DNA of 64,000 nt from a bacterium (lineage in GTDB: Bacteria > Patescibacteriota > Microgenomatia > Curtissbacterales > GWA2-41-24). The first letter of the stretch is position 1. Each line of letters starts with the position of its first letter. The DNA is taken from the NCBI GenBank assembly GCA_021813945.1, contig JAKAJD010000001.1, positions 73,744 to 137,743 of the forward strand, written 5' to 3'. The translations under genes were made by a program, and so were the position numbers. The notes under the pieces are model-generated. The model was not told the DNA's origin. It did not search any database and saw nothing but the letters and a program-made list of their open reading frames with translations. Positions 5,039 to 59,528 of this stretch are shown piece by piece.

Positions 5039-5838
5039 AAGGACCTAAAATTAGTGTCATTTTGTCAGTTTATAATGGCATGCCCTTTCTAAAATATGCT
5101 GTAGAAAGCATCCTTAAACAAACATATAGCAACTTTGAATTCATTATAGTTAACGACGCATCAAATGACGGAACTTTAAAATATCTCAAGAGCTTAAAAG
5201 ACAAGCGCATCAAAATTATCACTAATCAAAAAAATCTCGGCCTTGCGGCTTCTTTAAACAAAGCACTTTCAATCGCGAAAGGAGAATATATTGCTCGTAT
5301 GGATGCGGATGATATAAGTCTTCCAAACAGGTTTAAAACTCAAGTTGAATATCTACGCGCAAATCCTGAAGTCAGCCTCTGTGGCTGCTGGGTTGATCTT
5401 ATAGACAAGAATGGAAAAGTCATTGGAGAAAAAAGATATCCTGCAAATGACTTAGAATTAAAAAACGCCCTCAAATGGTATCAGCCAATTGTTCACCCAA
5501 CTTTTATGGCAACAAAGAAATTCTATAAAAGTTTAAATGGATATGACACTCAGTTTGATTATGCGGAAGATTATGAACTCTTATCAAGGGCAATCAAAAA
5601 TAATAAATTTGCAAACATCCCATCGAAATTATTTTTATGGAGGCTAGCAAATGATAGGAGATCAAGAAGATATATGAGAAACATAGATATTGCTGACTAT
5701 AAAGTAAAACTTAAAATCCTAAAAGAAAATTACTTTGGAAAATTGTATATCCTATATGTATTTAAAAAATTCATCACAACCTTTTTAATCCCTATTGAGT
5801 TAAAAATGTTTATCGCAAAAAAATTTAAACTTGCGTGA
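5035..5838 (+). CDS. GT2 glycosyltransferase
   Basis: SVILSVYNG ... FIIVNDASNDGT ... ARMDADD motifs. Confidence 0.8.
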   Translation: MKGPKISVILSVYNGMPFLKYAVESILKQTYSNFEFIIVNDASNDGTLKYLKSLKDKRIKIITNQKNLGLAASLNKALSIAKGEYIARMDADDISLPNRFKTQVEYLRANPEVSLCGCWVDLIDKNGKVIGEKRYPANDLELKNALKWYQPIVHPTFMATKKFYKSLNGYDTQFDYAEDYELLSRAIKNNKFANIPSKLFLWRLANDRRSRRYMRNIDIADYKVKLKILKENYFGKLYILYVFKKFITTFLIPIELKMFIAKKFKLA

Positions 5839-7391
5839 AGTCAAAGCTTAAAATTAGAAAAACGCTAGCTCAACATTACGATTTAATCATTGGTTTTCTA
5901 CTTTTCATATCTTACCGGCTTTTTTTCACTTGGATTTTATGGCATGGCCGACATGTTCCACCAGAACCAGACGACTCTTATTATTATCTGGCAAACGCAA
6001 AACATTTTCTAACTATCGACACATTCGAAAGGTTTAGATTGCTACCCTTTTCGCTTTGGTTGAATTTACTGAGCATTTTTACCAAGTTCAATTTAGAAAC
6101 GGCATATCAGTTAAATTTTTATCTTGGGCCAATAATAATGTTTGCGGCGATCTATTATTTTGTCCACGAACTAGAAAATAGCCGCATTATCCGCCTACTT
6201 CTGTTAGTCATAGTTGGGCTGTATTCTGGCAGTGGTGATTATCATGGTTTCTATTGGGTAGTTGAAAGTTTTTATCAGCTTGCAGTCTTTTTTATAATTT
6301 TTGGCATACTGATAAGGGATCAGAAAATAAAAGTACGTTGGTTATTGCCTATCTGCTTCTTGTTTATTTTTATTCATCCAACAAGCGCTTTTTTGTCAGC
6401 AATTTTTATACTTTATCCAATATTCCTTTTCTTGCTGGCAAAAACAGATTCAACGAGAGCTTTTAAAAATTCATTTCTGCTAATCATTAGTTTAGGAATT
6501 CCATTCCTCGTATATTTAATCCTAAGCAAAGCTTACCCAAGTGCAAATAGTCCACAGTCAATAGATATTCAAACTCGTTTAATAAGAGAATTCTTCTTAG
6601 GAAGATTAAGTCCCATTAGTTTTTCCGTAATTTGGCAAAATTATTTTGCAATATTTTTTATAAATATTGGCACAATAGTGATATATTTTGCTATGTTTGC
6701 ATTAGCTTATTATCAAAGAAAATTTAAACTTCTCGCAATATTTTTTTCAATTTCTGTGGTTGTTTTGCTTTCATCGTTTATACCTTATGGCTCAAGGACT
6801 TTAAATTTCCTTTGGCCCACAACATTCTTCTTAATAGCTTATTTTTTAGTAGGAATTTGGAGAGTGCTGGAAAAAACTAATTCTAGATTAAAATTAAGAT
6901 ATCTTACTATGTTACCCGTGGCAGCACTATTTTTTATAGTGACTATATTTAACATAATTTCAGTTTCTGCCGAAAACGGGGCAAAAAACTATAATTGGTA
7001 TAGACCCTGTATAAGTCAAGCTCAAAATTTTAACTTATACTTTACTTCCCACGAATCAATGAATGCCTTTTCGCTTTACCAAGACAGTGAAAAAAATCTG
7101 CATTTTTTATCTATAGAGGCGTTGAATAGCTTGTCAAACTCTGAAAATTTGTTAATAGAAACAAAAAACGAAAACTTAAAACCGCAGCCATTAAACGGAA
7201 TTGAAGAATATTTAACAAGCAGAATCACGCGCAGGAGCGCTCTTGGCAATGTTCAGTATCCACAAAATGCATGGACGACACCAGCAGCGGATCTGGAATC
7301 TATAAAGGAATTCTTAGATAAAAAAAACCTAGAACTTGAAAGCTATCTAGATTGCGGTCACTTTAAAACCTCAATTATCAAAACGTTATGA
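5835..7391 (+). CDS. polytopic membrane protein, putative GT-C glycosyltransferase
   Basis: More than 10 hydrophobic helices. Acidic pair after the first helix (PPEPDDSYYYLANAKHF) as in the first extracytoplasmic loop of ArnT/PMT-type GT-C. Soluble C-terminal ~120 aa. GTG start. Confidence 0.45.
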   Translation: MKSKLKIRKTLAQHYDLIIGFLLFISYRLFFTWILWHGRHVPPEPDDSYYYLANAKHFLTIDTFERFRLLPFSLWLNLLSIFTKFNLETAYQLNFYLGPIIMFAAIYYFVHELENSRIIRLLLLVIVGLYSGSGDYHGFYWVVESFYQLAVFFIIFGILIRDQKIKVRWLLPICFLFIFIHPTSAFLSAIFILYPIFLFLLAKTDSTRAFKNSFLLIISLGIPFLVYLILSKAYPSANSPQSIDIQTRLIREFFLGRLSPISFSVIWQNYFAIFFINIGTIVIYFAMFALAYYQRKFKLLAIFFSISVVVLLSSFIPYGSRTLNFLWPTTFFLIAYFLVGIWRVLEKTNSRLKLRYLTMLPVAALFFIVTIFNIISVSAENGAKNYNWYRPCISQAQNFNLYFTSHESMNAFSLYQDSEKNLHFLSIEALNSLSNSENLLIETKNENLKPQPLNGIEEYLTSRITRRSALGNVQYPQNAWTTPAADLESIKEFLDKKNLELESYLDCGHFKTSIIKTL

Positions 7392-8506
7392 AGATTTGCT
7401 CTCCTCAACTAGGCCTTAACCCTAAATCCAATCTTGGAGGAGAAATTCACGACCATTTTGTTATTCACAACCTTGCAAAAAGAGGTCATAAAATTTTTGT
7501 TTATTTGCCAAAAGGAAGAAACTATCAAAAAAACCCGAACATTATTATAAAACGAGCGCCAATAAAGCACATACCGGCGTTTATATTTAATTTGCTTATA
7601 ATCCCTTATTTATTCAAAGCCTACAAAGAGGAAAAATTCGATATTTTACGTGTTCACAACCCATATTTTGTTGGTTTGGGAGCGATAGTTTTTAAGTTCT
7701 TCTATCCCAATGTGCCTGTCATTGCAACGTATCATCTTGAAGAAAAGTCACCAATATTTACATTAATCAATAAACTAACCATAAATAGGTACGACAAGAT
7801 TATTTGTGTCAGCAATTATTTAAAGAATTGGCTTATGAATGATTACAATGTGGAAAGTAAAAAAATTAGTGTTATATACAATGGAGTAGATCCTAATATA
7901 AGGCCTGCAGCAAAAAATGGGAACTTTCTAAAAAAATATAATCTTGGCGGAAAATTTACGATCCTTTTCATGGGCTTATTAATTCCAAGAAAAAACCCTT
8001 TATTCCTAATTAAAGTTTTCAAGCAACTAAAAAAGAATCACAGAAATGTGTCATTAATGATTTGCGGTTCCGGTCCTTTAAAAAATCAAATACGTGAATT
8101 TATTAAAAAAAATATGCTTACCGATGTGCATTTAATAGATTCCATCTATGGTCAGGAGAAGAAAGAAATTTTTAACCTTTGCGATGTTTTTGCGCTACCC
8201 AGCCTTAACGAAGGTTTCGGACTAGTAGTTGCCGAGGCAATGGCATGTGCCAAACCTGTTGTTGTTGCAGACAATTCATCCCTTGTTGAGTTAGTTACTG
8301 ATGGTAAAGAAGGTTACACCTTAAATTATAATATTAATGCATGGGTTAACAAATTCACATCACTTATAAAAAACAAGGACTTAAGATTGAGCATCGGCCT
8401 GAGTGCTTCGTCTAAGGTCAAAAAGCAATTTAATTGGCAAATATCAACACAAATGTATGAAAGCGTTCTGTTAAGCTTGAAAGATGAGAATCCACCCCAG
8501 AATTAA
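7388..8506 (+). CDS. GT-B fold glycosyltransferase (GT4 family)
   Basis: NEGFGLVVAEAMACAKPVVV motif. Confidence 0.8.
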   Translation: MKICSPQLGLNPKSNLGGEIHDHFVIHNLAKRGHKIFVYLPKGRNYQKNPNIIIKRAPIKHIPAFIFNLLIIPYLFKAYKEEKFDILRVHNPYFVGLGAIVFKFFYPNVPVIATYHLEEKSPIFTLINKLTINRYDKIICVSNYLKNWLMNDYNVESKKISVIYNGVDPNIRPAAKNGNFLKKYNLGGKFTILFMGLLIPRKNPLFLIKVFKQLKKNHRNVSLMICGSGPLKNQIREFIKKNMLTDVHLIDSIYGQEKKEIFNLCDVFALPSLNEGFGLVVAEAMACAKPVVVADNSSLVELVTDGKEGYTLNYNINAWVNKFTSLIKNKDLRLSIGLSASSKVKKQFNWQISTQMYESVLLSLKDENPPQN

Positions 8507-10250
8507 TATCCTAATAGTTGTAGCGTTACTAGTAGGCTTTATTTACTTCTTGCCTCACTTAATTTTTTACAGTTTTAGTTTAAATAGAGGTGTATATTAT
8601 CCACTTAATTTTTCTGAGCTGGCATATGCATCCCAGGTAAAGGAAATAACAGAAGGCCATCTTTCCGTAGGCGACTCTCAAATTTTTGAATATAAAAATA
8701 TCTTTCCGCCCATCTATCCGTATGTACCTATTTTTACACTTGCGGCAATGGCATTATCTTCTGGATCAATTGCAAGTGCTTTCGTTATTAGCGATTTTGT
8801 TTTTCCGGCATTAATATTTTTAATGATTTACTTATTTTCAAAAAAAATAACAAAAAATTCTGAATTTTCAACCTTTAATGGTTTGGCAACAGTATTTTTA
8901 TACTCAATAACTACAAATATTCCTCCCATTACGCCTTACCTCATAAGTCAGTTTTTCAAAAAACTTCTCATTACCGATATAACAATGCCGCTTCAATTTT
9001 CAAGAACACCTAACCCGCAAATCAGTTTCATTTTCCTCTTGATACCATTATTCACTCTGTATTTTTATCTCCTTAGGCCGAGCGTTAGAAAATTAATAAT
9101 AATCACAATATTTGGAGCATTACTATTCAGCACCTACTTTTATCATGCAACCTTTTTTTATTTTACAATGCTTATTATTTTTGTAATTAGCTTATTCAGA
9201 AAGCAGTGGGATCAATCAAAACAGCTTATATTGTGCCTATCTGTTTTAACAGTCATCGCCTTACTTTATAGGCATTTGTCTTCGCAAGCACCCTATTCTT
9301 ATTCACAGATAATGGCAGGGTATTTTAATATAAAATACCCTGACTGGATTTTCAGTTTAAGATACCTTTCTATTTCAATAATCGTCTATTTTCTTGTTAG
9401 AGTTAAAAATGCCTCACTTTTAATATTTGCAACAGCCGTTGTTTTATCATCAATTGTGTGCATGAATTTTCAATTATTTTTTGGCTGGACAATTTCTCCG
9501 GGGCATTGGCCGCAAACAACCATTGAACCGGTTATATTAATTATCTTTCTGATAGCCCTCCATCAATATCTTGTAAACAAAGTATCTCTCGGCAAATTGT
9601 ATGTTATCTTAAGCATTTTAATATTAGCTCACGCTCTTATTTTCCAGCTTAAGTTTGCGGATAAGTTTATAAATAATGTTGTTATTTCCAATGATAAATA
9701 TGCGGCAATTACGTGGCTTAAAAATCATGCAGATAAAAATTCGGTGGTTTTATCACTCGACGTAGAAAAATTTCAGTCCTATATCACTGTGCTAACGAAT
9801 GCAAATAATTTTGTTCCTATTTACTCTTATCATTATGCTTCTTTGGACGAAATATGGATGCGAAATTTATATGCATATAAAATCTATTCGCTTGATATGT
9901 CAAATATAAAATTTGAGAGTTTAAAACCCGCCATTTATTCTTTTGGTGAAGCTTTTAACATAAATAAATATAAACATTACTCTTTAAACGAATACCCTCA
10001 GGAATATATTGCAAAAATGCAAAATTGTTTTCCTAGTATTTGCGCCGGATACTATGTGATTCCCAAAACTATTATGTCCTACTACAAATCGGTTTATCAA
10101 AATTTAAATTTAAGAGATATGCCTTATAAACTGGATTTTGTTGTCTATGGGGATTATGAAAGGAGAATAGGAGCCTCTCCTCCCAAAGGAGATATAGTTT
10201 ACACTTCAGGGGCTACAAGCATTTATAAAATGCCTAGCGATTTGCATTAG
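8484..10250 (+). CDS. large polytopic membrane protein, function unknown (possible GT-C)
   Basis: 588 aa. N-terminal two-thirds is strongly hydrophobic with many predicted TM helices. C-terminal ~170 aa is soluble. No diagnostic motif recognised. Confidence 0.4.
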   Translation: MRIHPRINILIVVALLVGFIYFLPHLIFYSFSLNRGVYYPLNFSELAYASQVKEITEGHLSVGDSQIFEYKNIFPPIYPYVPIFTLAAMALSSGSIASAFVISDFVFPALIFLMIYLFSKKITKNSEFSTFNGLATVFLYSITTNIPPITPYLISQFFKKLLITDITMPLQFSRTPNPQISFIFLLIPLFTLYFYLLRPSVRKLIIITIFGALLFSTYFYHATFFYFTMLIIFVISLFRKQWDQSKQLILCLSVLTVIALLYRHLSSQAPYSYSQIMAGYFNIKYPDWIFSLRYLSISIIVYFLVRVKNASLLIFATAVVLSSIVCMNFQLFFGWTISPGHWPQTTIEPVILIIFLIALHQYLVNKVSLGKLYVILSILILAHALIFQLKFADKFINNVVISNDKYAAITWLKNHADKNSVVLSLDVEKFQSYITVLTNANNFVPIYSYHYASLDEIWMRNLYAYKIYSLDMSNIKFESLKPAIYSFGEAFNINKYKHYSLNEYPQEYIAKMQNCFPSICAGYYVIPKTIMSYYKSVYQNLNLRDMPYKLDFVVYGDYERRIGASPPKGDIVYTSGATSIYKMPSDLH

Positions 10251-10277
10251 ATTTTGCCTGAAGCTATTATCAGTGGA

Positions 10278-13540: not shown

Positions 13541-14602
13541 ATGACGCTAAACGAGAAGACAAAATCGGTAATATATTTTGGTTCATACGATCCAAATTAC
13601 TCAAGAAACAGAATAATCAGAAAAGGACTAGAGGCGAATGGGGTCAAAGTTTTTACAAATCAAGCCAAAGGTATTATATTCATCCGATATTTTAAGCTTG
13701 TTTTATCCTTCCTCAAAGTGCAAACGAAAATCACTGCAATTATTGTTGGTTTCCCAGGACATTACGATATGCCACTCGCTTTTATACTTGGCAAAATTTT
13801 CAAAAAAAGAGTCTTTTATGATATTTTCGCCTCTACTTACGAGACATACGTTTTAGATCGAAAAGTCGTAAAGGAAAAGTCTTTAAGAGCAAAGTTTTTT
13901 TATTTGCTTGATTGGGTAGGCTTAAAACTAGCAGACTATGTTGTTGTCGACACAAAAGCACATGGCAGATTTTATCAAAAATTATATGGCGTTGATTTCA
14001 AAAAAACAATTCTTGTATATGTCGGTTCAGACACAGACTATTTTTATCCCAGGAAAACCAAAGAAACGACTGATGTACTTTTTTATGGGAGTTATCAACC
14101 CCTGCAAGGAACAGATGTTATCATCAAAGCAGCCGCAATTCTCCCTAACGTAAAATTTAAGATGATAGGAGAGGGACAGGAAAAAGCATTAGCAGAGTCG
14201 TTAGCAAAAAATTTAAAGCTCAAAAATGTTGATTTTGTTGACTGGTTATCATTAAAAAATTTAGCTGTCGAAATACGCAGAGCCAAAATATGCCTCGGAA
14301 TTTTTGGAAACTCCCAAAAAGCCAAAACCGTTATCCCTAACAAAGTTTACGATTATTTAGCTACGGGAAAACCCGTTATCACTGTAGATTCAGTTGCTTC
14401 TAGGGAAATTTTAAAAAATCAAGAAACAGGCACTCTCGTCAAACCTGGAGAAGACGTTGAGCTTGCAAAGCAAATTAACAGATTGATACAAGACTTTAAA
14501 CACGCGAAAATAGCTGCCGCTAAAGGGTATAAACTTTTCACTGAAAAATTCAGGCCAATTTTAGTAACAAGAAATTTAACATCTAAAATTTATGAAGAAT
14601 AA
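13541..14602 (+). CDS. GT-B fold glycosyltransferase (GT4-like, divergent)
   Basis: N-terminal domain VIYFGSYDPNYSRNRI. C-terminal nucleotide-sugar-binding-like segment KVYDYLATGKPVITVDS. Confidence 0.55.
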   Translation: MTLNEKTKSVIYFGSYDPNYSRNRIIRKGLEANGVKVFTNQAKGIIFIRYFKLVLSFLKVQTKITAIIVGFPGHYDMPLAFILGKIFKKRVFYDIFASTYETYVLDRKVVKEKSLRAKFFYLLDWVGLKLADYVVVDTKAHGRFYQKLYGVDFKKTILVYVGSDTDYFYPRKTKETTDVLFYGSYQPLQGTDVIIKAAAILPNVKFKMIGEGQEKALAESLAKNLKLKNVDFVDWLSLKNLAVEIRRAKICLGIFGNSQKAKTVIPNKVYDYLATGKPVITVDSVASREILKNQETGTLVKPGEDVELAKQINRLIQDFKHAKIAAAKGYKLFTEKFRPILVTRNLTSKIYEE

Positions 14603-16046
14603 ATTTTACTGCCTGGTTGCTTTTTCGGTTCTAATAGTTGCTCATATTTTTTTGCTACTAAAAAGCAGTCTATATATCACACCAGAATTAATCTTCCCAG
14701 TGTGGGTTACGTCAAATGCAAAAGTTTTTGTATCAGAGATCCAATCAGTATATCCACCGAGCCTGTTCTATATTGTCAGTTTATTGTATCGATATTCTAA
14801 TAACCTTTTCTTTTCTGTGAACGTTATTCAGCTCTTATTTATTTTAACGATTGATGGCTTGCTATTTAACTATTTAGTAAGAAAATTTAATTTTAAACTT
14901 GCGATTCTGGGTCTTGCATTTTATATCCCCTGGCAAGTTTATTTTAGGGGTAATTATTTATGGTTTGATTTGGCTACAATACCATTCGTTTTATTATCTT
15001 TTCTGTTTTTCGAAAAATACCTAGATCATTATGAAATTAATCAGCTTGCATCTTCCTCTGCGTTTCTTGCACTGGGACTATTATTCAAAAATACAGTTTT
15101 ATGGATTTATATATTATATTTCGTATGGCTTTCTAGTCTCGCGATTACGAAATCAGTTAAATTAAGGTCGTACATTAAGACTTTAATAATCTTATTAATT
15201 CCACTTGTAACTGCCATTGGCATAAATTTTTTAACTGTTCTCGAAAAAACCACTTTTGAATTTGCTTTTTATTGGAATTTTTTAATTCAAAACATAATTT
15301 ATCCTAGAATGCCTACTCTGCAAAGAAGCATAGAAAGTAACTATGCCTTGCCAATGGTTATTATTCTGTCGATAATTATCATTTCGTGTTTAGTTATAGA
15401 AAAATATTCTAAACTGAAAAATGATCAAAAATTATTCATCTATTCATTTTCGTTTGTTTCTCTTGCCAATATATATCCGCGGTGGAGCGATTTTCATGTT
15501 CAACCATTTTTAGTCTTTTTAACAATAGCGGTGATTTATGCAATCTCTTTACTAGACAAACTAACAAAATTTCATAAAAAAACTTTGACACTTATTGGCT
15601 TCGTTATTCTAACGTTGACTGTTTTAATATTTGTCAAAAGAATTAGTGCTGAAAGGACAAATATTAACGTCAACAGAATAGATTATATTTCTGAATACGC
15701 TCCTACAACATTAACAAGCTTAATTAAAGGAAAAGATATTTTCGTAGAAGACTTTTCGCTATACAATGGTGTCAGTACAAATCAAGACATAGACGCATCC
15801 GGGGGCCAAACGTTTAAGCTTGCCATAACTAGCCCAGATAAATTTTTCAAGTTCACAAGTGCACAAGAAACGTTTAATTTTGTTTCAAAAAAAAACCCTC
15901 AGCTTATTATTATTCCTATGCAAGTTCAAGAAAGAGAAATATCAGGAATAAATCTAACCAGCTTTGAAAAATTAATAAAAGACAAATATCGTCTGCAAGC
16001 AAATGTAGCAGGAGTTTACTTTATATACAACCGTGAAACAAATTAA
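14592..16046 (+). CDS. polytopic membrane protein, DUF2029/GT87-like putative GT-C
   Basis: About 10 TM helices. YPP motif after the first helices (EIQSVYPPSLFYIVSLL), shared with 31668-33011 and 45159-46568. Soluble C-terminal ~130 aa. Confidence 0.4.
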   Translation: MKNKFYCLVAFSVLIVAHIFLLLKSSLYITPELIFPVWVTSNAKVFVSEIQSVYPPSLFYIVSLLYRYSNNLFFSVNVIQLLFILTIDGLLFNYLVRKFNFKLAILGLAFYIPWQVYFRGNYLWFDLATIPFVLLSFLFFEKYLDHYEINQLASSSAFLALGLLFKNTVLWIYILYFVWLSSLAITKSVKLRSYIKTLIILLIPLVTAIGINFLTVLEKTTFEFAFYWNFLIQNIIYPRMPTLQRSIESNYALPMVIILSIIIISCLVIEKYSKLKNDQKLFIYSFSFVSLANIYPRWSDFHVQPFLVFLTIAVIYAISLLDKLTKFHKKTLTLIGFVILTLTVLIFVKRISAERTNINVNRIDYISEYAPTTLTSLIKGKDIFVEDFSLYNGVSTNQDIDASGGQTFKLAITSPDKFFKFTSAQETFNFVSKKNPQLIIIPMQVQEREISGINLTSFEKLIKDKYRLQANVAGVYFIYNRETN

Positions 16047-16047: not shown

Positions 16048-17055
16048 TTAGTAACGAGTCTTTACAGTGTCAACTAGCCTTCTGGCAGTTAATACGCAAG
16101 TGTTAAGCTTTGCAGAAAGTATGGCAAAATACCCGTTTCCATAGTCGATTAAGTCGGTAATTCTTTCGTCCGAGAGCTCGACATCTGGTCGAAGTACTTT
16201 TATAACTCTCAAAGTATCTATTAACTTTGCATTTTTCATCGATGGGATGTATGTCGAATCTTTGTAGTTAGCAGTTTTATCAGAATGGTTTAAAGGGGGA
16301 TATTTTGAAACAGATCTAACTGCCGAGCTTTCAACGTTCCAAAGGAGATGGTATGGAGTTTTACTATAAGGGAGTATTGAATAAAAATTACCATCCATGA
16401 TAGTGACGCCAATCCCGGATAGTTCTTTTGGCAGATTTAAAACTGGAACATTGCATATGTCGTATCGGTATTTTTTAACCGGTAAATTTAGTATTTGGTT
16501 GATTCGATTTAAACTTGAATAGGTGGCATTTACAATTATCTGAAATTTATTCTTATCTTCAATTTGAAATTGCCTGTTTAAAAATACCTTAACCTTTGTT
16601 TTTTTCAATAAGCGTTTTGCAATCAGCTTCATTTTTTCAAGATCTATTATTTGTTCTTTGACGGAAATGCAACCTGAAACTTCTCGAGCATTTAAAATAT
16701 TGTTTGCAGGAAATTTTTCTTCGTGTGGTAAATTTAGCTTTTCGCAAAACTTTATGTATTGCTCAAAACTTACCCTGGAACCGTTTTTACTTATTGCATA
16801 ATAATTTTCTTTAACATCAATTAATGCTTCATCAAAATATTCTTTGAAACTTGGAATTCCCTCCTGACACTGTTTGGCTGTAGCAAGACTGCGAGGATAA
16901 TGATAGCCAAGATGAAACCTATTTTGATTCACGTTTGTTGCCCCCAACATCAAATCTTGATTCTGCTCGATGAGGGTTGTATCAACATTTGCTTTGGCCA
17001 GTTCGATGGCGGTTGTAACCCCGAAAATACCACCACCAACAACGAGAGCTTTCAT
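16048..17055 (-). CDS. FAD-dependent oxidoreductase (DAO-like)
   Basis: N-terminal dinucleotide-binding motif MKALVVGGGIFGVTTAIELA. 335 aa. Confidence 0.6.
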   Translation of the reverse strand: MKALVVGGGIFGVTTAIELAKANVDTTLIEQNQDLMLGATNVNQNRFHLGYHYPRSLATAKQCQEGIPSFKEYFDEALIDVKENYYAISKNGSRVSFEQYIKFCEKLNLPHEEKFPANNILNAREVSGCISVKEQIIDLEKMKLIAKRLLKKTKVKVFLNRQFQIEDKNKFQIIVNATYSSLNRINQILNLPVKKYRYDICNVPVLNLPKELSGIGVTIMDGNFYSILPYSKTPYHLLWNVESSAVRSVSKYPPLNHSDKTANYKDSTYIPSMKNAKLIDTLRVIKVLRPDVELSDERITDLIDYGNGYFAILSAKLNTCVLTARRLVDTVKTRY

Positions 17056-17056
17056 A

Positions 17057-18055
17057 TCAAATATTGAGGTATTTTAACAGGGCCTGAAATCTCTTTAAAT
17101 AGGTATGATCCATTTTGGTCCTTCTCCAGCCAGCCCCGGCAATTTTTTCTCTTGCGAAGTCATTTTTTAGATAAAATTTCGTTTTTTCTATTAATTCCTT
17201 GCTGTTTTCAAAAACTTCAATTTCCTTGCCAGGGTCAAAAAGATTGTAAAGACTTTTTCTTTTGTTGGCCAACAAAAAACCTCCAGCACCTGTCACCTCG
17301 AAAGTTCTAACATTAGTTCCCTCGCTGTAAATATTTTCTACAACGTGGACATTTAGATTAATCTTGGTGACACGAATTATTTTTATCATTTCTTCTACTG
17401 TTATTGGACCACCCTGATAACACTTTGAAAGTGTTGAGTTACGCCATTGTTTACCACCCCATATTTTGAGTCCATATTTTGCAACAGGGGCAATCTTGGC
17501 CTCTCTGTGGGCTTGCCAATTAGCTATAAAGTTAATATTGTACCTTTTATTATTCGGGGCAGCCTTTTGCTCTGGCATTGTACAAAACGGTAAATACAAC
17601 ACATTTCTAAACCCGTTTTTGTGATAAATTTTTGTGCGCCACGCATCCCAATAGACAAAACAATCGTAAGCTTTTATAAAATCAGAATTTTTTCCACTAT
17701 TTGGCAAATGATCAGGATACCAATTGACTGCTAGGATACCCAGCTTTTTAAGTCTTAAAACTGTGTCGAGAAGAATAATTTCGCCTTTAAACGTCATAAA
17801 TAAATCCGGTTTCCACGATTTTGCAACTCTCAAAATCTCACTGTTTGCAATAACCCTTTTTATACTTGGGCGGTCATGACAGGTTAGCTCATCAGTGATC
17901 CTTTTTGGCAAGCGAAAGTAGTTTTTAGCAGCTGCCACAATATCAGTCTTGCGGTAGTCAATATTTCTGACTTCCCAACCAAGCTGCTTAAATGTTAAAA
18001 GCGATGGTTTTAGAAAAGATGAATCGCCTGGGATTGCAAGAAGTATTTTCTTCAT
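17057..18055 (-). CDS. CgeB-like glycosyltransferase (DUF3880 + Glyco_trans_1_2-like C-terminus)
   Basis: C-terminal RTFEVTGAGGFLLANKRKSLYNLFDPGKEIEVFENSKELIEKTKFYLKNDFAREKIAGAG matches the CgeB/Glyco_trans_1_2 pattern. The track start (TTG 18172) overlaps the divergent gene; the first ATG (MKKILLAIPGD) is at 18055. Confidence 0.5.
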   Translation of the reverse strand: MKKILLAIPGDSSFLKPSLLTFKQLGWEVRNIDYRKTDIVAAAKNYFRLPKRITDELTCHDRPSIKRVIANSEILRVAKSWKPDLFMTFKGEIILLDTVLRLKKLGILAVNWYPDHLPNSGKNSDFIKAYDCFVYWDAWRTKIYHKNGFRNVLYLPFCTMPEQKAAPNNKRYNINFIANWQAHREAKIAPVAKYGLKIWGGKQWRNSTLSKCYQGGPITVEEMIKIIRVTKINLNVHVVENIYSEGTNVRTFEVTGAGGFLLANKRKSLYNLFDPGKEIEVFENSKELIEKTKFYLKNDFAREKIAGAGWRRTKMDHTYLKRFQALLKYLNI

Positions 18056-18085
18056 TTGCCTAATTATAGTATCTTTACATATAAG
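18056..18085 (+). promoter_or_regulatory. candidate sigma70-like promoter for the formyltransferase gene (TTGCCT-N18-TATAAG)
   Basis: TTGCCT at 18056-18061, 18-nt spacer, TATAAG at 18080-18085, about 23 nt upstream of ATG 18109. The minus strand of the same 53-bp divergent gap carries a TATAAT 7 nt upstream of ATG 18055. Confidence 0.3.
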
Positions 18086-18108
18086 ATATTGTAAAATATC
18101 GAGAATTA

Positions 18109-29031: not shown

Positions 29032-29032
29032 A

Positions 29033-36441: not shown

Positions 36442-36450
36442 CGGCTCATT

Positions 36451-49627: not shown

Positions 49628-50464
49628 ATGAAACCTTTGATTTCTGTTATCATTCCTGCCTACAATGAACAAGATCTGATCGCACAATGTCTTGACTCAA
49701 TCACCAAACAAACGTATAAACCTTTAGAGGTCATTGTTGTTGATGATGGCTCAAACGACAAAACTTTACAAATCGCAAAAGGATTTAAAGTCAAAATCTT
49801 AACCCAAAATCATAAGGGTCCCGGAGTAGCCCGCAATTTAGCAGCATCGATCGCCAACGGTGAAATTCTGGTTTTCGTGGACAGCGATATGACCTTTGAG
49901 AAAGATTTCATTGCGGACCTCGTGGCACCGATCTTAAAAAAAGAGTCAATTGGAACTTTTTCAAAAAATGAAATGAACTCAAACGCAGACAATACTTGGT
50001 CAGCCTGTTGGAATATCAACAGAAATTTGCCTCCGGACAGGCTTATCCCTTTAGATTATCCGCAAAAAGCCCCCGTTTTTAGAGCAATTTTAAAAGCCGA
50101 ATTTGAAAAAGTTGGCGGATTTGAAGTTTCGGGACAGTATACAGACGACTGGTCTCTTTCAAGAAAGTTAAAAGTTGAATCAACTCTTGCAGAAAGAGCA
50201 AAATACTACCACAAAAACCCATCAAGCATTTCCGAAATTTTCAAACAAGCACGCTGGATTGGCAAAAATGAATTTATCGTAGGGTCTCTTGTACGAAAAA
50301 TTAAATCACTTATTTTTTATAGTCTACCCGTCTCTTTAGCAATCGGGGTTTATAAAGCCGCAAAAAGAAAAAATCCTTCCTTTATAATATTCAAAGTTAT
50401 TTACGACTTTGCTGTTTTTATATCTGTTGTTATGTCTTTTTTTAAAGAAGATAAAGCAAAATAA
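49628..50464 (+). CDS. GT2 glycosyltransferase
   Basis: SVIIPAYNEQ ... VVDDGSNDKT ... DSDM motifs. Confidence 0.8.
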   Translation: MKPLISVIIPAYNEQDLIAQCLDSITKQTYKPLEVIVVDDGSNDKTLQIAKGFKVKILTQNHKGPGVARNLAASIANGEILVFVDSDMTFEKDFIADLVAPILKKESIGTFSKNEMNSNADNTWSACWNINRNLPPDRLIPLDYPQKAPVFRAILKAEFEKVGGFEVSGQYTDDWSLSRKLKVESTLAERAKYYHKNPSSISEIFKQARWIGKNEFIVGSLVRKIKSLIFYSLPVSLAIGVYKAAKRKNPSFIIFKVIYDFAVFISVVMSFFKEDKAK

Positions 50465-51897
50465 TGATTTTTTTGATACTTTTTGTTGGGCTTATTCTAA
50501 GACTTATCAGTCTTAACCAAAGCCTTTGGTTAGACGAAGCCATTAATGCAGTTTTCGTAAGGTCTCTCAACCTAAAGTCACTTATTTTCAATTACTCTCT
50601 TTCAGATTTTCATCCTCCTGCGTATCACGTTTTAATGCGCGGATGGATATTATTATTCGGATCTTCGGAAATTGCATTGAGAATGCCTTCAGTGATATTT
50701 GGAGTTGCGTCAATTTACCTAATTTATAAAATTGGAAAAACCCTCTTCGACGAAAAAACAGCGCTTATTGCTGCAACTCTTCTTTCAGTAGCACCACTTC
50801 ACATTTACTATTCTCAAGAGGCTCGGATGTACATGATGGCCTTCTTCTTTATAACTTCATCAGTCTATTTTTTTATCATGATCTTAAAGTTCGACAAGCT
50901 TTTCTATTGGATAGGTTTTATAGTCTCAACAGTACTGTTTCTTTATTCGGATTATTTACCATATCTCATGATTCCAACATATTTGATTTATCTTTTTGTC
51001 TTTAGAAAGAGAATCTCAAAATCGACCGTTAAATCATTTATCCCTGCATTTTTATTAATTTCTATTTTTATCGTCCCATGGTTATTGGTATTTCCAAAAC
51101 AACTGTCAACCGGCCTTTCTGCAGCAGCTGCCTCTCCAAGCTGGTCTCAAGTTGTGGGAGCACCTCAGCTAAAAACTCTTATGGTGACGTTTGTAAAATT
51201 CACAATTGGCAGAATTACAGAGGATAACAAACTCTCCTACGCCTTAATGTTTGCACCCATTGGATTTTTTGTGTCGCTTCTTTTTGCATTTTCAACGCTT
51301 AGAACTTCAAGACTAAGATCGTTTTTATATTTTTGGTTGTTTCTGCCGATTATTATTGCCTTTATCGTTTCTTTTTTCATTCCAATTTTTTCTTACTTTC
51401 GCTTAATTTTCGCACTTGGAGCATTTTATCTAATTTGGGCCTCCGCAATAAATACGGTCAACTGGACTTTACCTACAAGAATCCTTCTTGTTATTGCCAT
51501 TGCCATAAATTTAGGCTCCTCAATAATTTATCTTTTAAACCCAAAGTTTCAAAGAGAGGACTGGAAGAAAGCAGCTGCATACGTTTCCCGAAATGCTGAC
51601 AGAAACTCGATCGTTCTTTTCGAATCAACTTACACTCTTGCACCTTTTGATTATTACAACAGCCTAAATATAGATGCAAAAGGAGCTTTAGACAGTTTCA
51701 GTCCTTCGCCCGAAAAGGTTGCCGAAAATGTCAAAAATTACACACACGGTAAAAGCAAAGTCTTTCTCTTCCAGTATTTGTCACCAATAACAGACCCCAG
51801 GGGATTGGTTTTCGAAAATCTTTCAAAAGCTGGTTACACAAACATTAAAACCGAAGATATAAACGGTGTTGGGTTCATTTACGAATTTGAAAAATGA
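50464..51897 (+). CDS. GT-C membrane glycosyltransferase, ArnT/PMT_2-like
   Basis: SLWLDEAINAVF (DE motif) after the first helix. About 11 TM helices plus a soluble C-terminal ~140 aa. TAATG coupling to the upstream gene. Confidence 0.6.
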   Translation: MIFLILFVGLILRLISLNQSLWLDEAINAVFVRSLNLKSLIFNYSLSDFHPPAYHVLMRGWILLFGSSEIALRMPSVIFGVASIYLIYKIGKTLFDEKTALIAATLLSVAPLHIYYSQEARMYMMAFFFITSSVYFFIMILKFDKLFYWIGFIVSTVLFLYSDYLPYLMIPTYLIYLFVFRKRISKSTVKSFIPAFLLISIFIVPWLLVFPKQLSTGLSAAAASPSWSQVVGAPQLKTLMVTFVKFTIGRITEDNKLSYALMFAPIGFFVSLLFAFSTLRTSRLRSFLYFWLFLPIIIAFIVSFFIPIFSYFRLIFALGAFYLIWASAINTVNWTLPTRILLVIAIAINLGSSIIYLLNPKFQREDWKKAAAYVSRNADRNSIVLFESTYTLAPFDYYNSLNIDAKGALDSFSPSPEKVAENVKNYTHGKSKVFLFQYLSPITDPRGLVFENLSKAGYTNIKTEDINGVGFIYEFEK

Positions 51898-52666: not shown

Positions 52667-52667
52667 T

Positions 52668-53888: not shown

Positions 53889-53897
53889 AATAAAAGT

Positions 53898-54986: not shown

Positions 54987-54998
54987 TCTGCGTGAAAA

Positions 54999-55027
54999 TT
55001 GATCGTACGACCAACCCATAGTATAAT
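54999..55027 (+). promoter_or_regulatory. sigma70-like promoter TTGATC-N17-TATAAT
   Basis: TTGATC at 54999-55004, exact 17-nt spacer, TATAAT at 55022-55027. 37 nt upstream of ATG 55065, in a 78-bp intergenic gap. Confidence 0.45.
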
Positions 55028-55064
55028 TAACCAATAAAGCTGTGTTTTGCTTTATACTTAAGAT

Positions 55065-55661: not shown

Positions 55662-55664
55662 ATT

Positions 55665-56555
55665 ATGGATCTTTCCGTAATAATCGTTAATTGGAATACC
55701 AAAAAACTTCTCGATGATTGTTTATCATCCATCTACAAATTCACTCGGGGTATCAAGTTTGAGGTGATAGTAATGGACAACGCTTCAGAAGACGGCAGCA
55801 CGCAAATGGTTGAAAAAAAATTTCCGCAAGTTAAGCTCATCAAAAACAAAGATAATATCGGTTTCACCAAAGCAAACAATCAAGGTATAAAAGTCGCGAA
55901 AGGGGACAGCATATTCCTTTTAAACTCCGATACGTATCTCATTGAAAACTCGCTCAAAAAACTTGTCGAAAAATCACAAACTGAGAATCCAAAAGTTGTT
56001 TTGGCTCCCCTGCTTCTAAACGAAAACCGCTCAATTCAACAATCCGTCGGCTTTTTCCCAAATCTCCCCCAAATTTTTTTCTGGATGAGCTTTATTGACG
56101 ATCTGCCGTTCGGTCAGTTTCTCAAACCGTATCATGAGGACCATGACACTTTTTACCAAAAAGAACAGGAAGTAGACTGGGCGACCGGTGCAGCAATCCT
56201 GGTTCCAAAAGAAGCAATAAAAAAGGCAGGCCCACTTGATGAAAAAATTTTTATGTACGGCGAAGATGTTGAATGGTGTTACCGGCTTAAAAAATTTGGG
56301 TATAAGATGCTTTTCTCACCGACAACGAAAATTGTCCACATTGGCAGGGGCTCATCCAAAAAAATACCCACGCGAGCTTTTATCGGTGAGTACCAAGGAG
56401 TCAAGTATTTTTATCAGAAATACAAAAGCTTTTTGGCTTTGCAAATTGCACGCATCTTCCTTAAAATAGGAGCATTACTACGCGTCGTTATATTTTCAAT
56501 TCTAGGCAGAAAGGAGCTTGCCCAAAGCTATGTCGAAGCTTTTAAAGTGGCTTGA
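55665..56555 (+). CDS. GT2 glycosyltransferase (WbbL/RfbF-like)
   Basis: SVIIVNWNT ... VMDNASEDGS ... NSDT motifs. Confidence 0.8.
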   Translation: MDLSVIIVNWNTKKLLDDCLSSIYKFTRGIKFEVIVMDNASEDGSTQMVEKKFPQVKLIKNKDNIGFTKANNQGIKVAKGDSIFLLNSDTYLIENSLKKLVEKSQTENPKVVLAPLLLNENRSIQQSVGFFPNLPQIFFWMSFIDDLPFGQFLKPYHEDHDTFYQKEQEVDWATGAAILVPKEAIKKAGPLDEKIFMYGEDVEWCYRLKKFGYKMLFSPTTKIVHIGRGSSKKIPTRAFIGEYQGVKYFYQKYKSFLALQIARIFLKIGALLRVVIFSILGRKELAQSYVEAFKVA

Positions 56556-58092
56556 CGACCACATACTTGAATACCTGAGCTTTGCGCTTTTAATTTTTAT
56601 CCCCTTATACCCGAAACTCCCTCTTGCCGATCTCATTCGAGGGTACATTGTGCGTTTGAGGTTAGACGATATTTTAGTTGCTTTTGCATTTGCTATTTGG
56701 ATAATTTGGCTTTTGAGGAAAAAAGTTTCTCTTAAAGGAAATCCTCTCTTTGTACCGATGGCTATTTACATCATTGTCGGTTTTATATCTTCACTTTCTG
56801 CAATTTTTATAACCAAAACTGTGCCCTTTCAGCTGATCCATATGGAAAAGCTGTTTTTAAACTACGGACGAAGAATCGAATATTTTTCCGTTTTTTTCGT
56901 TTTCTTTTCTTCCATAAAATCACTCGAGCAAATTAAAAAATATGTATATGTCGCAGCTGTAGTCTTGCTTTTGGTTTCGATTTACGGATTTGGTCAAAAA
57001 TATCTTTACTGGCCTGCTTTTTCAACCATGAATAGGGAATTTTCCAAAGGTATCGTTCTTTATCTAACGCCTCACGCCAGGGTCCTTTCAACTTTCGGAG
57101 GCCATTATGACCTTGCCGCATATTTAGTCGTAGTTTTAACACTTTTTATTCCACTCATTTTCGTAGTCAAAAAAATCTGGGTAAAATTCGCTCTAGCTTT
57201 AATTTCATTTTCCGGTTTTTGGCTTTTGATACTAACCGTTTCAAGGACTTCGTTTCTTGCTTACCTTGCATCAATTACAATTGCCTTTCTTATTCTTGCG
57301 ACGAAAAAAAGCTGGAAGTGGTCACTTATTCATTGGATTGTCGTAATCTTTATTTCGCTTGGAATTATGCTTTCATTTGGAGATTTGTCGCAACGTTTCT
57401 CACACGTCTTAAAATTGGATGCCATTAAAAACACGGCACTTTCTCCTATCAAAAAAGAATTGCCTTCCGGCAAAAATGTAGCTTTTCTAGATATTGGCTC
57501 AAATTCCGACATGCCACCAACCACAGTTAAACCGGGGTCAACACCGCAACCTGGGCAAAAACCATCCGATGTTTACAAAGAAGTTCCTCTCTACGGTACT
57601 CAATCTGGAACATATGCTGCAATTCCGAGGGTTTATTCTCAAAATGCGGTTTCTTATGACCTTTCAACCGGAATCCGCCTTGACTATACATGGCCTCATG
57701 CCATTGCCGGTTTTGAGAAAAATCCGCTTCTAGGCTCCGGCTATTCAACGCTTCAAAAAAGTAATATTGAAACTTTCACAGAAGCCGAATCTACCGATAA
57801 TGATTTCCTGAGAGCACTGGGTGAAACGGGCCTTTTGGGCTTTCTTAGCTTCTTTGGAATCATTGCCCTGGTTTGCTATTTGGGACTTCGGGATTTTGGC
57901 AAAATCGACAATCTCTTTTATGCAACCATAGTTGCCGCTATTTCTGCAGGGATTATTGGCCTTCTTGTAAACGGTATTCTAATTGATGTTTTTGAAGCCT
58001 CAAAAGTGGCTTATATTTTGTGGATTATGGCGGCTATATTGCTAGCAACTGTTAAGTTGGCCACACGCCAGCCTAAAACGTCCAAAACGTGA
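56530..58092 (+). CDS. O-antigen ligase/polymerase-family (Wzy_C-like) membrane protein
   Basis: Many TM helices. TVSRTSFLAYLASI (the SR..L motif of Wzy_C). A large loop ends in NPLLGSGYST...DNDFLRALGETGLLGFL, which resembles the NPLFGxGxG...HNxYLqxlxExGxxG pattern of O-antigen ligases. AAGGAG lies 13 nt upstream of ATG 56530; the track start is TTG 56518. Confidence 0.55.
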   Translation: MSKLLKWLDDHILEYLSFALLIFIPLYPKLPLADLIRGYIVRLRLDDILVAFAFAIWIIWLLRKKVSLKGNPLFVPMAIYIIVGFISSLSAIFITKTVPFQLIHMEKLFLNYGRRIEYFSVFFVFFSSIKSLEQIKKYVYVAAVVLLLVSIYGFGQKYLYWPAFSTMNREFSKGIVLYLTPHARVLSTFGGHYDLAAYLVVVLTLFIPLIFVVKKIWVKFALALISFSGFWLLILTVSRTSFLAYLASITIAFLILATKKSWKWSLIHWIVVIFISLGIMLSFGDLSQRFSHVLKLDAIKNTALSPIKKELPSGKNVAFLDIGSNSDMPPTTVKPGSTPQPGQKPSDVYKEVPLYGTQSGTYAAIPRVYSQNAVSYDLSTGIRLDYTWPHAIAGFEKNPLLGSGYSTLQKSNIETFTEAESTDNDFLRALGETGLLGFLSFFGIIALVCYLGLRDFGKIDNLFYATIVAAISAGIIGLLVNGILIDVFEASKVAYILWIMAAILLATVKLATRQPKTSKT

Positions 58093-59528
58093 AGAAGTTT
58101 GAAATTATCCTTTTGATTTTTATTTTATCGATTGCTTTTGCAGTCAGGTTATATAAAATTAACCGGCCAATTGCCGATTGGCATTCTTGGCGTCAGGCAG
58201 ACACCGCTGCTGTTTCCCGCAACTTCATAAAGGAGGGCTTCAACCCTTTGATCCCAACATATGATGACATGTCCTCTCAAACAAATGGTCTCGATAATCC
58301 CAACCGCTATCGCTTTGTGGAATTCCCAATCTATAACATTTTGATTGCTGCGGTCTGGTCGGTGACAGGGATAAACGTAACCTACGCCAGGCTAGTAACA
58401 GTAGTAATCACGCTTTTGTCTACTGGCCTTCTCTATCTTTTAGTTCGAAAATTCTCAGGAGTTATGGTTGCTGCGCTCTCTTCTTTTTTCTTTGCCACAA
58501 TTCCCTATAACGTTTTCTACTCATCCACAATTCTTCCTGCACCTCTTATGGTTATGTCAGTTTTGGCTTTGTATCTTTCATTTTCTAACTGGCTGGAAAA
58601 CGAAAAAAGCTTTCTCTGGGCAGCACTTTCCGTAATCTTCGCCAACGTCGCAATTTTGGTTTGGCCGATTGCCCTTTTTTTCATGTTGCCTATTATCTAC
58701 TTAACTTTTCAGAAGCATGAATTTGGAGCTATCAAAAAGCTTAATCTCTGGCTTTTTGCAATTTTGTCTTTGCTGCCATTTCTTTTCTGGAGAGCCTGGA
58801 TGACCAAATTCCCTGCCGGTATTCCAAGCTGGCAATTTTTAATAAATGAAGGCAACATCCGTTTTAAAGGCGCATTTTTTAGATGGTTAATTGCCGAAAG
58901 GTTTGGAAATTTAATCTTAACCGTTGGAGGCTTCTCTCTCTTTATTTTGGGTTTAGTTAGAAAACCAGAGACCAAAGAAAAGTTTTTTTACTACAGTTGG
59001 CTAGCCTCTGTCGCTTTTTATTTCACCGTTTTCGCGTCCGGAAATGTCAGGCACGACTATTATCAAATTCCTACTGTTCCAATTCTTGCAATTTTTATGG
59101 CTCTTGGCGTCAAGTTTTTGGTGGAAAAACCGAAAGAGTATTTCAACAAATACGTTGGAATCTTAGCCGCTGTAGTTTTGGTGCTTTTTATGTATGCATT
59201 CGGCTTTTACGAGGTACAAGGTCATTATTGGATCAACCGCCCTCAAATAATAGAAGCCGGTCAGGCTGCCGATCGTATTTTGCCCAAAAATGCGACCGTG
59301 ATTGCTCCCTATAACGGCGATACCGCCTTTCTTTATCAAACGAACCGCCACGGTTACCCGGTCGTAGACAGATCACTTTCAGATTTTGTGAAAAATGGAA
59401 CAGATTACCTAGTGTCCGTTGATGTTGCAGACGCCGGAATTGCCAACCTTGCCAAAAACTGCCGAACTCTAGAAAAAACTTCAGACTATGTAATCATTCA
59501 GTTAAGCCTTGATTGTGTTGGTAAGTAG
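58089..59528 (+). CDS. GT-C membrane glycosyltransferase, ArnT/PMT_2-like
   Basis: HSWRQADTAAVSRNF after the first helix. About 11 TM helices plus a soluble C-terminal ~110 aa. GTGA-coupled start. Confidence 0.5.
   Translation: MKKFEIILLIFILSIAFAVRLYKINRPIADWHSWRQADTAAVSRNFIKEGFNPLIPTYDDMSSQTNGLDNPNRYRFVEFPIYNILIAAVWSVTGINVTYARLVTVVITLLSTGLLYLLVRKFSGVMVAALSSFFFATIPYNVFYSSTILPAPLMVMSVLALYLSFSNWLENEKSFLWAALSVIFANVAILVWPIALFFMLPIIYLTFQKHEFGAIKKLNLWLFAILSLLPFLFWRAWMTKFPAGIPSWQFLINEGNIRFKGAFFRWLIAERFGNLILTVGGFSLFILGLVRKPETKEKFFYYSWLASVAFYFTVFASGNVRHDYYQIPTVPILAIFMALGVKFLVEKPKEYFNKYVGILAAVVLVLFMYAFGFYEVQGHYWINRPQIIEAGQAADRILPKNATVIAPYNGDTAFLYQTNRHGYPVVDRSLSDFVKNGTDYLVSVDVADAGIANLAKNCRTLEKTSDYVIIQLSLDCVGK

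Follow-up and report, generated by a model that had tools for sequence, protein, structure and literature searches.

Multi-component transmembrane glycosylation is documented in Gram-positive bacteria by the GacI/GacJ/GacK/GacL system of Streptococcus pyogenes, by CsbB/GtcA/YfhO and by the Csd systems of Lactococcus, and the pairing of a soluble glycosyltransferase (GT) of family GT2 with a small partner of three transmembrane (TM) helices is the GacI/GacJ arrangement (PMC8035078). In such systems, a GT-A/GT2 enzyme makes a C55-P-sugar and a GT of the GT-C class carries out the final external transfer. Known loci contain one GT-C gene, rarely two or three dispersed ones, whereas the 64-kb window considered here (the whole stretch of 64,000 nucleotides that was analyzed, located at ~409-473 kb in a metagenomic contig 975,962 bp long) contains 14 genes of the GT-C_A type and five predicted synthases of lipid-P-sugars. 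It is probably the central part of a surface-glycan island of at least 82 kb, in which multi-component transmembrane glycosylation modules are stacked on a Wzx/Wzy-type line. Judging from its sequence, the host is a member of Patescibacteria (the candidate phyla radiation, or CPR) near Ca. Curtissbacteria, with a genome of ~1 Mb; the named homologues of its genes are from Patescibacteria, chiefly Ca. Curtissbacteria.

The likeness to the Gac, Csb and Csd systems extends to several components. The GT2 encoded at 1011 and its DUF2304 neighbour resemble GacI/GacJ, a Wzx-type flippase is GacK-like, and the last transfer would fall to a GT-C protein of PMT_2, YfhO or Pfam-less type. Unlike in these systems, a membrane partner is recognisable for only a minority of the synthases of the window, a GtrA-type flippase is missing, and Pfam has no model for several of the GT-C families. 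A second point of comparison is the Arn pathway (PmrHFIJKLM; ArnB, ArnA, ArnC, ArnE/F and ArnT). Three operons of the window combine a DegT aminotransferase, a short-chain dehydrogenase/reductase (SDR), an ArnC-like GT2 and a GT-C protein; a formyltransferase-like gene lies beside the first of them (module 1), and a small gene upstream of the window has a faint SMR-family match. Membership of the pathway itself is rejected by the scores, which for the DegT proteins are 153-208 bits against an ArnB cutoff of 631 and for the SDR proteins at most 112 against an ArnA cutoff of 777, one aminotransferase meeting instead the cutoff for dTDP-Fuc4N transaminase. Neither a bifunctional ArnA nor ArnD was found, the Pfam scan of the 60 window open reading frames (ORFs) shows no deformylase, the GT2 proteins of the window lack the TM helices of ArnC, and the host presumably has no lipid A, to judge from CPR envelopes. 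What is shared with Arn is the logic and not membership of the pathway.

Mycobacteria and corynebacteria carry sets of GT-C enzymes (EmbA-C, AftA-D, PimE/GT87 and Mpt) that use decaprenyl-P-Araf and polyprenyl-P-Man; in Mycobacterium, the genes lie scattered through a genome of 4 Mb. The window resembles these sets in its many divergent GT-C proteins, GT87 included, which would branch an external glycan from lipid-P-monosaccharides; AftA, Emb and PimE are moreover among the structural matches of the window models. It differs from them in that its genes lie in one island, ~8% of a 1-Mb genome, and in that its sequence families are mostly others; DPPR synthase and arabinose epimerase genes were not seen in scans of the locus. 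In the three-component pentofuranose side-chain systems, side chains are added after polymerisation by a GT-C enzyme of a newly recognised family, GT136, which works with a flippase and a synthase of the lipid-P-sugar, and their study shows that new GT-C families are still emerging from glycan loci (Kelly et al. 2024, PMC11127046). Likened by description, all three components have counterparts in the window; again by description, their synthase is dependent on phosphoribosyl pyrophosphate and their flippase is of the MATE type, whereas GT2 synthases and Wzx flippases are found here.

The GT-C proteins of the window

Every one of the 60 ORFs of at least 150 amino acids (aa) in the window was scanned against Pfam, and nearly all are glycan-related. 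Glycosyltransferases account for 36 of the 60 genes, and 15 of these are of the GT-C type. An earlier sequence-only reading of the window had listed 14 GT-C candidates and at least four distinct architectures. ORF calling recovers all 14 genes in place, a further one (8484-10250) had been missed, and the diversity had been understated, as at least eight mutually very divergent GT-C families are supported: PMT_2, GT87, PIG-V-like, YfhO, DUF2142, Wzy_C and several without a Pfam model. Hydropathy gives 7-13 hydrophobic segments in every candidate. The two families that could be assigned by fold are represented by the following genes, TM1 being the first TM helix.

5835-7391, plus strand: GT-C-fold membrane protein of a Pfam-less family, with invariant D46 (PPEPDDSY) after TM1; AlphaFold2 (AF2) model and Foldseek
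36451-37722, minus strand: GT-C-fold protein of a second Pfam-less family, in module 3, with invariant Q29-D30-D31-F32 after TM1; AF2 model and Foldseek

None of the 37 homologues of 5835 has a Pfam domain of its own, the sole Pfam matches of this family being GT2 domains on a fusion protein (P0101), and no Pfam match occurs among the 120 homologues listed for 36451. The alignment-based AF2 model of 5835 has a predicted local distance difference test score (pLDDT) of 89.4 and a predicted template modelling score (pTM) of 0.89; the corresponding values for 36451 are 92.7 and 0.92. In Foldseek comparisons with the PDB, the top 25 matches of the 5835 model are all GT-C enzymes (STT3, PglB, ALG9, ALG12, DPY19, AftA and ArnT), and the 36451 model matches only GT-C enzymes (PglB, STT3, ALG9, ArnT and Pmt4). 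For both models, every PDB match at E<=1e-3 is a GT-C enzyme, AglB, Emb and PimE also being among them, with probability 1.0 and template modelling scores of 0.48-0.59. On the evidence of these models, 5835 and 36451 are GT-C-fold proteins of undescribed sequence families, and structural modelling bears out the GT-C fold that had been proposed for them. Fold comparison alone succeeded here: profile searches of the PDB with family alignments A1 (5835), A2 (36451), A4, A5 (DUF2142) and A6 (40437) returned no true relatives. With hhalign values of 0.7% between A1 and A2 and 17.8% between A4 and A2, the Pfam-less families are not close paralogues. Recent duplication within the window is likewise ruled out, by an all-against-all BLAST of its membrane proteins that gives three weak pairs only.

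Four further genes have no Pfam assignment of their own. Where two numbers denote one gene (37649/37775, 40437/40452 and 56518/56530), the first is the start of the longer ORF and the second the chosen start.

8484-10250, plus strand: probable GT-C-like membrane protein of 588 aa, absent from the earlier list; ~12 hydrophobic segments and family comparisons
40452-42032, plus strand: PMT_2-related GT-C candidate with invariant D35 (YDES); BLAST and alignment A6, orthologues Pfam-less
42010-43092, minus strand: PIG-V/Mannosyl_trans2-like GT-C of 360 aa, with invariant D51 (360-aa numbering) and AFFPLWP; alignment A9
45159-46568, plus strand: GT-C-like candidate, paralogue of 14592, with NPYPP after TM1; PMT_2 16 bits and BLAST

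Single-sequence searches at E<=10 give no significant Pfam match for 5835, 36451, 40437, 45159, 42010 and 8484 (45159 reaching only the 16 bits to PMT_2), and NCBIfam scans give nothing useful for these six proteins. The 8484 family comprises 782 cluster representatives, and a weak PMT_2 match is seen in 4 of 52 members. An hhalign value of 96.4% (E 1.3e-9) links it to the 5835 family, the aligned stretch being exactly the post-TM1 loop with TM2. The consensus of the 8484 family after TM1 is DE..Y, of which the window copy retains only Glu and Tyr, the Asp being unaligned. The 8484-10250 product is, from these comparisons, the probable 15th GT-C-like protein of the window. The only ties of the 40437 protein to PMT_2 are BLAST matches, one with 50464 and one with a distant homologue (from L022) that is itself PMT_2-positive; 45159 is tied only to 14592 (BLAST E 6.5e-9). 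The earlier PIG-V-like call for 42010 holds through transitive homology, because 40 of 70 homologues match PF04188, one of them being 61% identical, although the protein itself has no match at E<=10. A paralogue upstream of the window, 30% identical, matches PF04188 weakly.

The remaining candidates are assigned from Pfam, with gathering thresholds of 26.1 bits for PMT_2 (PF13231), 25 for GT87/DUF2029 (PF09594), 28.5 for YfhO (PF09586) and 31.7 for Wzy_C (PF04932).

14592-16046, plus strand: borderline PMT_2-like GT-C candidate, paralogue of 45159; PMT_2 25.6 bits against 26.1
20304-21881, minus strand: PMT_2 GT-C of module 1, D33-E34 after TM1; PMT_2 41.5 bits
26096-27937, minus strand: PMT_2 GT-C of module 2, 613 aa, D38-E39 after TM1; PMT_2 37.6 bits, PMT 25.4 bits
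31668-33011, minus strand: GT87 (DUF2029) GT-C with ~4 additional N-terminal helices; PF09594 33.2 bits against 25
37775-39343, plus strand: DUF2142 polytopic membrane protein, GT-C-like; PF09913 78 bits
46547-48484, plus strand: YfhO-family GT-C; PF09586 54.7 bits, the match spanning the 390 N-terminal positions of the profile
50464-51897, plus strand: PMT_2 GT-C, D24-E25, preceded by the generic GT2 49628-50464; PMT_2 66.2 bits
56530-58092, plus strand: Wzy_C protein of the O-antigen ligase/polymerase type, class GT-C_B; PF04932 46.2 bits
58089-59528, plus strand: marginal PMT_2 GT-C with single Asp residues D30 and D39, no acidic pair; 27.2 bits against 26.1

The YfhO-like and O-antigen-ligase-like assignments of the sequence-only reading stand. 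The Wzy_C protein is counted as GT-C because O-antigen ligases and polymerases belong to the GT-C_B subclass (PMC10920833). Eight genes had been described as PMT_2-like with an acidic pair after TM1. The label applies above threshold to 20304, 26096, 50464 and 58089, whereas 5835, 36451 and 40437 have no PMT_2 hit and 37775 belongs to DUF2142; the DE or DD pair is present in seven of the eight, the exception being 58089 (ADWHSWRQAD). The proposed GT87-like trio of 14592, 31668 and 45159 does not hold together. Only 31668 matches GT87, while 14592 and 45159 form a separate related pair, without a GT87 match at E<=10 and with an hhalign value of 0.4% to 31668 in shallow alignments; comparison of this pair with the 40437 and PIG-V-like families, again with shallow alignments, gives nothing. 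The PIG-V-like and GT87 profiles show no detectable kinship (hhalign 4.7%). Both 42010 and 31668 match NCBIfam NF046093, the AZOBR_p60025 family cell surface glycopolymer formation protein, weakly (E ~3e-4, far under the cutoff).

The DUF2142 protein carries an invariant YPDEQ..NPPLYY in its family alignment (A5), and its family aligns with that of 40437 at an hhalign value of 82.9%. Its longest ORF begins at a GTG at 37649, with a 74-nt overlap into the divergent 36451 gene; the start at 37775 yields 522 aa and fits the orthologues (516-534 aa). The starts 37775, 40452, 43092 and 56530 agree with database gene calls, which give 360 aa for 42010-43092 and 520 aa for 56530-58092.

An Asp in the first loop is invariant in five family alignments: D46 (A1), D30/D31 (A2), D30/E31 (A5), D35 (A6) and D51 (A9). 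The N-terminal tails are short and contain Lys or Arg in most candidates, so the N terminus would be inside and loop 1 outside the membrane. The positive-inside rule and homology thus suggest an external position of the acidic loop, whose conserved Asp is likely to be the catalytic residue. The sequence-only reading had allowed for transporters or unrelated membrane families; no family search of the candidates produced a transporter match.

Donor synthases, flippases and aminosugar operons

The nine GT2 transferases of the window comprise five of the DPMS/ArnC/GtrB-like type and four generic ones. The genes that concern donor supply and export are as follows.

1011-1700, plus strand: soluble GT2, DPMS/ArnC/GtrB-like, no TM helix; Pfam Glycos_transf_2 and five-member profile
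1697-2050, plus strand: DUF2304 small membrane protein, 117 aa, 3 TM helices, likely GacJ-like partner of the 1011 GT2; PF10066
5035-5838, plus strand: generic GT2 in start/stop overlap with 5835; best PDB matches of chondroitin synthase and SpsA type, not DPMS
19060-20322, minus strand: Wzx-type flippase at the end of module 1; Polysacc_synt 45.9 bits
21878-22573, minus strand: DPMS/ArnC-like GT2 of module 1; five-member profile
22552-23517, minus strand: SDR nucleotide-sugar epimerase/dehydratase/reductase of module 1; Pfam/NCBIfam
23495-24700, minus strand: DegT sugar aminotransferase of module 1; DegT_DnrJ_EryC1 325.8 bits
27934-30788, minus strand: donor genes of module 2, with DegT 27934-29070, SDR 29033-30016 and GT2 30009-30788; Pfam/NCBIfam
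30009-30788, minus strand: DPMS-like GT2 of module 2; five-member profile
33646-36441, minus strand: donor genes of module 3, with SDR 33646-34605, DegT 34602-35735 and GT2 35722-36441; Pfam/NCBIfam
35722-36441, minus strand: DPMS-like GT2 of module 3; five-member profile
43228-44475, plus strand: Wzx-type flippase heading a Wzx-GT2-GT-C-YfhO block (43228-48484); Polysacc_synt 61 bits
44441-45184, plus strand: DPMS/ArnC-like GT2 within that block; five-member profile
49628-50464, plus strand: generic GT2 ahead of 50464, not DPMS-like

A profile built from the five small GT2 proteins (1011, 21878, 30009, 35722 and 44441) matches Pyrococcus DPMS (5mlz, 9e-40), ArnC (1e-29) and GtrB (3e-27) over the full length, and other GT2 structures at 5e-19 or weaker. 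Since the profile is far closer to DPMS, ArnC and GtrB than to other GT2 enzymes, the five are predicted to be polyprenyl-phosphate sugar synthases. They measure 229-259 aa and are all devoid of TM helices, and only 1011 has a DUF2304 neighbour. The earlier proposal of lipid-linked donors is supported, as a prediction, because these five enzymes are encoded beside GT-C genes and accompanied by two Wzx flippases and the GacJ-like DUF2304 partner. The generic nature of 5035 and 49628 rules out that every GT2 adjacent to a GT-C gene makes a lipid-P-sugar. GT2 and GT-C genes are coupled by stop/start overlaps, and P0101, a protein of 738 aa from a JGI metagenome, fuses a 5035-like GT2 (43% identity) with a 5835-like GT-C (36% identity), which argues that the 5035 and 5835 products act together.

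The three Arn-like operons (19060-24700, 26096-30788 and 33646-37722) each unite SDR, DegT, DPMS-like GT2 and GT-C genes. The DegT protein of module 3 exceeds the NCBIfam cutoff for dTDP-4-amino-4,6-dideoxygalactose transaminase (397 against 375). By analogy with the logic of the Arn pathway, the sugars of the three modules are probably 4-amino(-6-deoxy) sugars.

The island and its variation among relatives

Genes of the window are densely packed, stop/start codon overlaps are frequent and the GC content is low (31-41% across the window). Besides the GT-C and GT2 genes, the window encodes 12 GT-B (GT4-type) transferases, five SDR nucleotide-sugar epimerases/dehydratases, three DegT aminotransferases, five methyltransferases, two hexapeptide acyltransferases, one GNAT protein, one formyltransferase-like protein, one short nucleotide-sugar-dehydrogenase-like protein and two Wzx-type flippases. 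The island runs beyond both ends of the window, to at least 82 kb and at least 21 GT-C-like genes, ~8% of the 976-kb contig; 82 kb is a lower bound, as the 5' boundary lies beyond the 10 kb examined upstream. These 10 kb (L005, 1-9989) hold four tandem PMT/PMT_2/STT3-like GT-C genes, three of which (paralogues b, c and d) share 32-42% mutual identity, and a second PIG-V-like gene. A small gene of 122 aa in this region is an SMR-like candidate flippase, the faint SMR-family match being seen in the copy of a relative. Downstream (L006, 10719-19659) follow a PMT_2 gene, a HisKA sensor kinase, a ManC-type nucleotidyltransferase, Bac_transf, DUF4012 and then recO. This Bac_transf, just downstream of the window, is the single initiating transferase in the 84 kb examined.

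The same island is found in a relative with a 1.08-Mb genome, with cassettes added or lost: the 8484 gene and the 26096/GT87 module are missing, and a 568-aa protein is extra. Some ten species-level genomes share a core at 38-67% identity, made of two divergent blocks, one of DUF2142, hexapeptide transferase, methyltransferase, 40437 family and Wzx, the other of 36451 family, GT2, DegT and SDR. The order of module 3 genes beside the 36451 family is kept in most of these ~10 genomes, and the PIG-V-like gene is not at the corresponding slot. Other GT-C-clan genes stand beside the 36451-family gene in relatives (PTPS_related, PMT_2 and a weak YfhO-like match). An extra large membrane-protein gene lies between the 36451-family gene and the GT2 gene in L014 (7592-9283), L019 (7258-8829) and L021 (7233-8918); the L019 and L021 copies belong to PTPS_related, a family of the GT-C type, and the L014 copy has no Pfam match. 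This slot looks, from gene order, like a hotspot of cassette insertion. The overall pattern is that of a conserved core with exchangeable GT-C cassettes. Several of the syntenic records look mislabelled: L010, L011, L021 and L022, third-party-annotation records of metagenome-assembled genomes, are titled 'uncultured Gammaproteobacteria bacterium', and L015 and L017 'Saccharibacteria', yet all are syntenic with Ca. Curtissbacteria.

Three other places in the window deserve mention. The block at 16048-19044, beside module 1, encodes an FAD-dependent oxidoreductase (DAO/NAD_binding_8), a Glyco_trans_1_2 protein and a formyltransferase-like protein whose weak Formyl_trans_N match resembles the ArnA N-terminus; the block could produce an N-formylated or oxidised sugar. 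The nucleotide-sugar-dehydrogenase-like protein (24780-25517, plus strand) has 245 aa, against ~410 aa for full enzymes, and matches only their central part; as the 1.08-Mb relative has the same short form (246 aa), a pseudogene is improbable. A 173-aa ORF at 34816-35337 (plus strand) lies antisense and entirely within the DegT gene 34602-35735 and is most likely spurious.

Proposed mechanism and alternative explanations

The reading that we consider probable, an island of transmembrane glycosylation modules stacked on a Wzx/Wzy-type line, builds on the gene families and the synteny that were observed, on the class to which the donor synthases belong and on the GT-C fold modelled for the two orphan families. 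Cytoplasmic GT-B and GT2 enzymes would build an oligosaccharide on polyprenyl-pyrophosphate, the downstream Bac_transf starting the chain, and methyl- and acetyltransferases would tailor it. Wzx flippases would export the product, which the Wzy_C-type enzyme would polymerise or ligate. In parallel, the five soluble DPMS/ArnC/GtrB-type GT2 enzymes would load polyprenyl phosphate with single sugars, the resulting lipid-P-sugars would be flipped across the membrane, and the 14 GT-C_A-type transferases would pass these sugars on, at the outer face, to the polymer, to envelope proteins or to both. The sequence-only reading had envisaged a branched glycan built largely outside the cytoplasm, each GT-C adding a different residue. 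The first part is overstated in view of the 12 GT-B and four generic GT2 cytoplasmic transferases and the downstream Bac_transf. The second fails as worded, with five donor synthases for 14 GT-C_A-type enzymes; different linkages or acceptors for each GT-C are possible. One branched glycan fits the evidence as well as several glycans or glycoproteins, and polysaccharide acceptors fit it as well as protein acceptors.

Several points weigh against the stacked-module reading. Donor synthases number only five for the 14 GT-C_A-type genes, the GT2 genes adjoining 5835 and 50464 are generic rather than DPMS-like, the Pfam scan of window ORFs shows no GtrA-type flippase, and the SDR/DegT pairs other than that of module 3 fall under every curated NCBIfam cutoff. 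The donors, acceptors and flippase assignments are all predictions, the topology follows from the positive-inside rule and homology, and the sole evidence tying 8484, 40437, 45159 and DUF2142 to GT-C, from profiles or BLAST, is moderately strong.

With somewhat less than an even chance, the locus is no single pathway but sets several independent glycoconjugate systems side by side (for instance a Wzx/Wzy polymer, a YfhO-decorated teichoic-acid-like polymer and separate side-chain modules), whose exchangeable cassettes would provide surface diversity between strains for host attachment or phage evasion. This would accommodate the two Wzx genes, the several strand-switching transcription blocks and the variation of GC content along the window, as well as the cassettes missing from the 1.08-Mb relative, the absence of the PIG-V-like gene from the corresponding slot in ~10 genomes and the variable slot with its PTPS_related genes in relatives. 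The packing of overlapping genes over 82 kb and the one Bac_transf in 84 kb speak against it, and the core order kept in many genomes argues for functional integration. The two explanations are compatible and do not exclude each other.

It is unlikely that most PMT_2/PMT/STT3-like proteins are, instead of polysaccharide builders, enzymes that O- or N-glycosylate secreted or surface proteins (pilins, S-layer proteins or disordered Ser/Thr-rich regions). Pfam matches to PMT and STT3 occur in 20304, in 26096 and in the four paralogues upstream, oligosaccharyltransferases are the best structural matches for both models, and GtrB with a GT-C is reported to glycosylate proteins in streptococci (PMC12041528). 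The Foldseek rank, however, at template modelling scores of ~0.5 and 10-13% identity, cannot discriminate between acceptor types, the surrounding Wzx, Wzy_C, Bac_transf and 12 GT-B genes are typical of a polysaccharide locus, and the ORF scan of the window reveals no candidate glycoprotein.

That 8484, 40437, 45159 and perhaps DUF2142 are transporters, polymer-export proteins or acceptor-binding accessory proteins that resemble GT-C in hydropathy only, a view to which the lack of Pfam, NCBIfam or PDB sequence matches for the Pfam-less polytopic proteins, the unaligned Asp of 8484 and the accessory acceptor-binding partners speculated upon elsewhere (PMC8035078) would lend themselves, is improbable given the alignment of the 8484 family with the modelled 5835 family over the catalytic loop and TM2, the BLAST matches of 40437 to PMT_2 proteins, the DE/D motif invariant after TM1 in the DUF2142 and 40437 families, and family searches that return no transporter.

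The mechanism class of the stacked modules is known. What is unusual is the number and diversity of GT-C proteins in an ultrasmall genome, several of their families being without a Pfam model or solved relative, and the occurrence of aminosugar modules of an Arn-like kind in a lineage whose envelope is thought to be Gram-positive-like; in a literature search over a limited collection, no paper dealt with how abundant GT-C proteins are in CPR. A bolder interpretation, which we offer tentatively and regard as doubtful, is that ~8% of a ~1-Mb Curtissbacteria-like genome forms a super-locus for a heavily branched, amino-sugar-rich envelope glycan or a glycoprotein coat made mainly by extracytoplasmic GT-C chemistry, an analogue of mycobacterial arabinogalactan and lipoarabinomannan assembly in an ultrasmall episymbiont, with at least four GT-C families lacking a Pfam or structural description (5835, 8484, 36451 and 40437/45159) and with cassette exchange setting host or phage specificity.

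CPR/Patescibacteria are ultrasmall, mostly uncultured episymbionts, whose surface is the interface with hosts and phages and whose surface chemistry is essentially unknown. With 36 of 60 genes of the window encoding GTs, 15 of the GT-C type, so reduced a genome invests heavily in building surface glycans. The Pfam-less GT-C families, two of them with confident models, are candidates for new CAZy families, and in the three aminosugar operons the Arn type of logic reaches organisms that presumably lack lipid A. With its swappable cassettes, the conserved core could mark surface serotype diversity in metagenomes.

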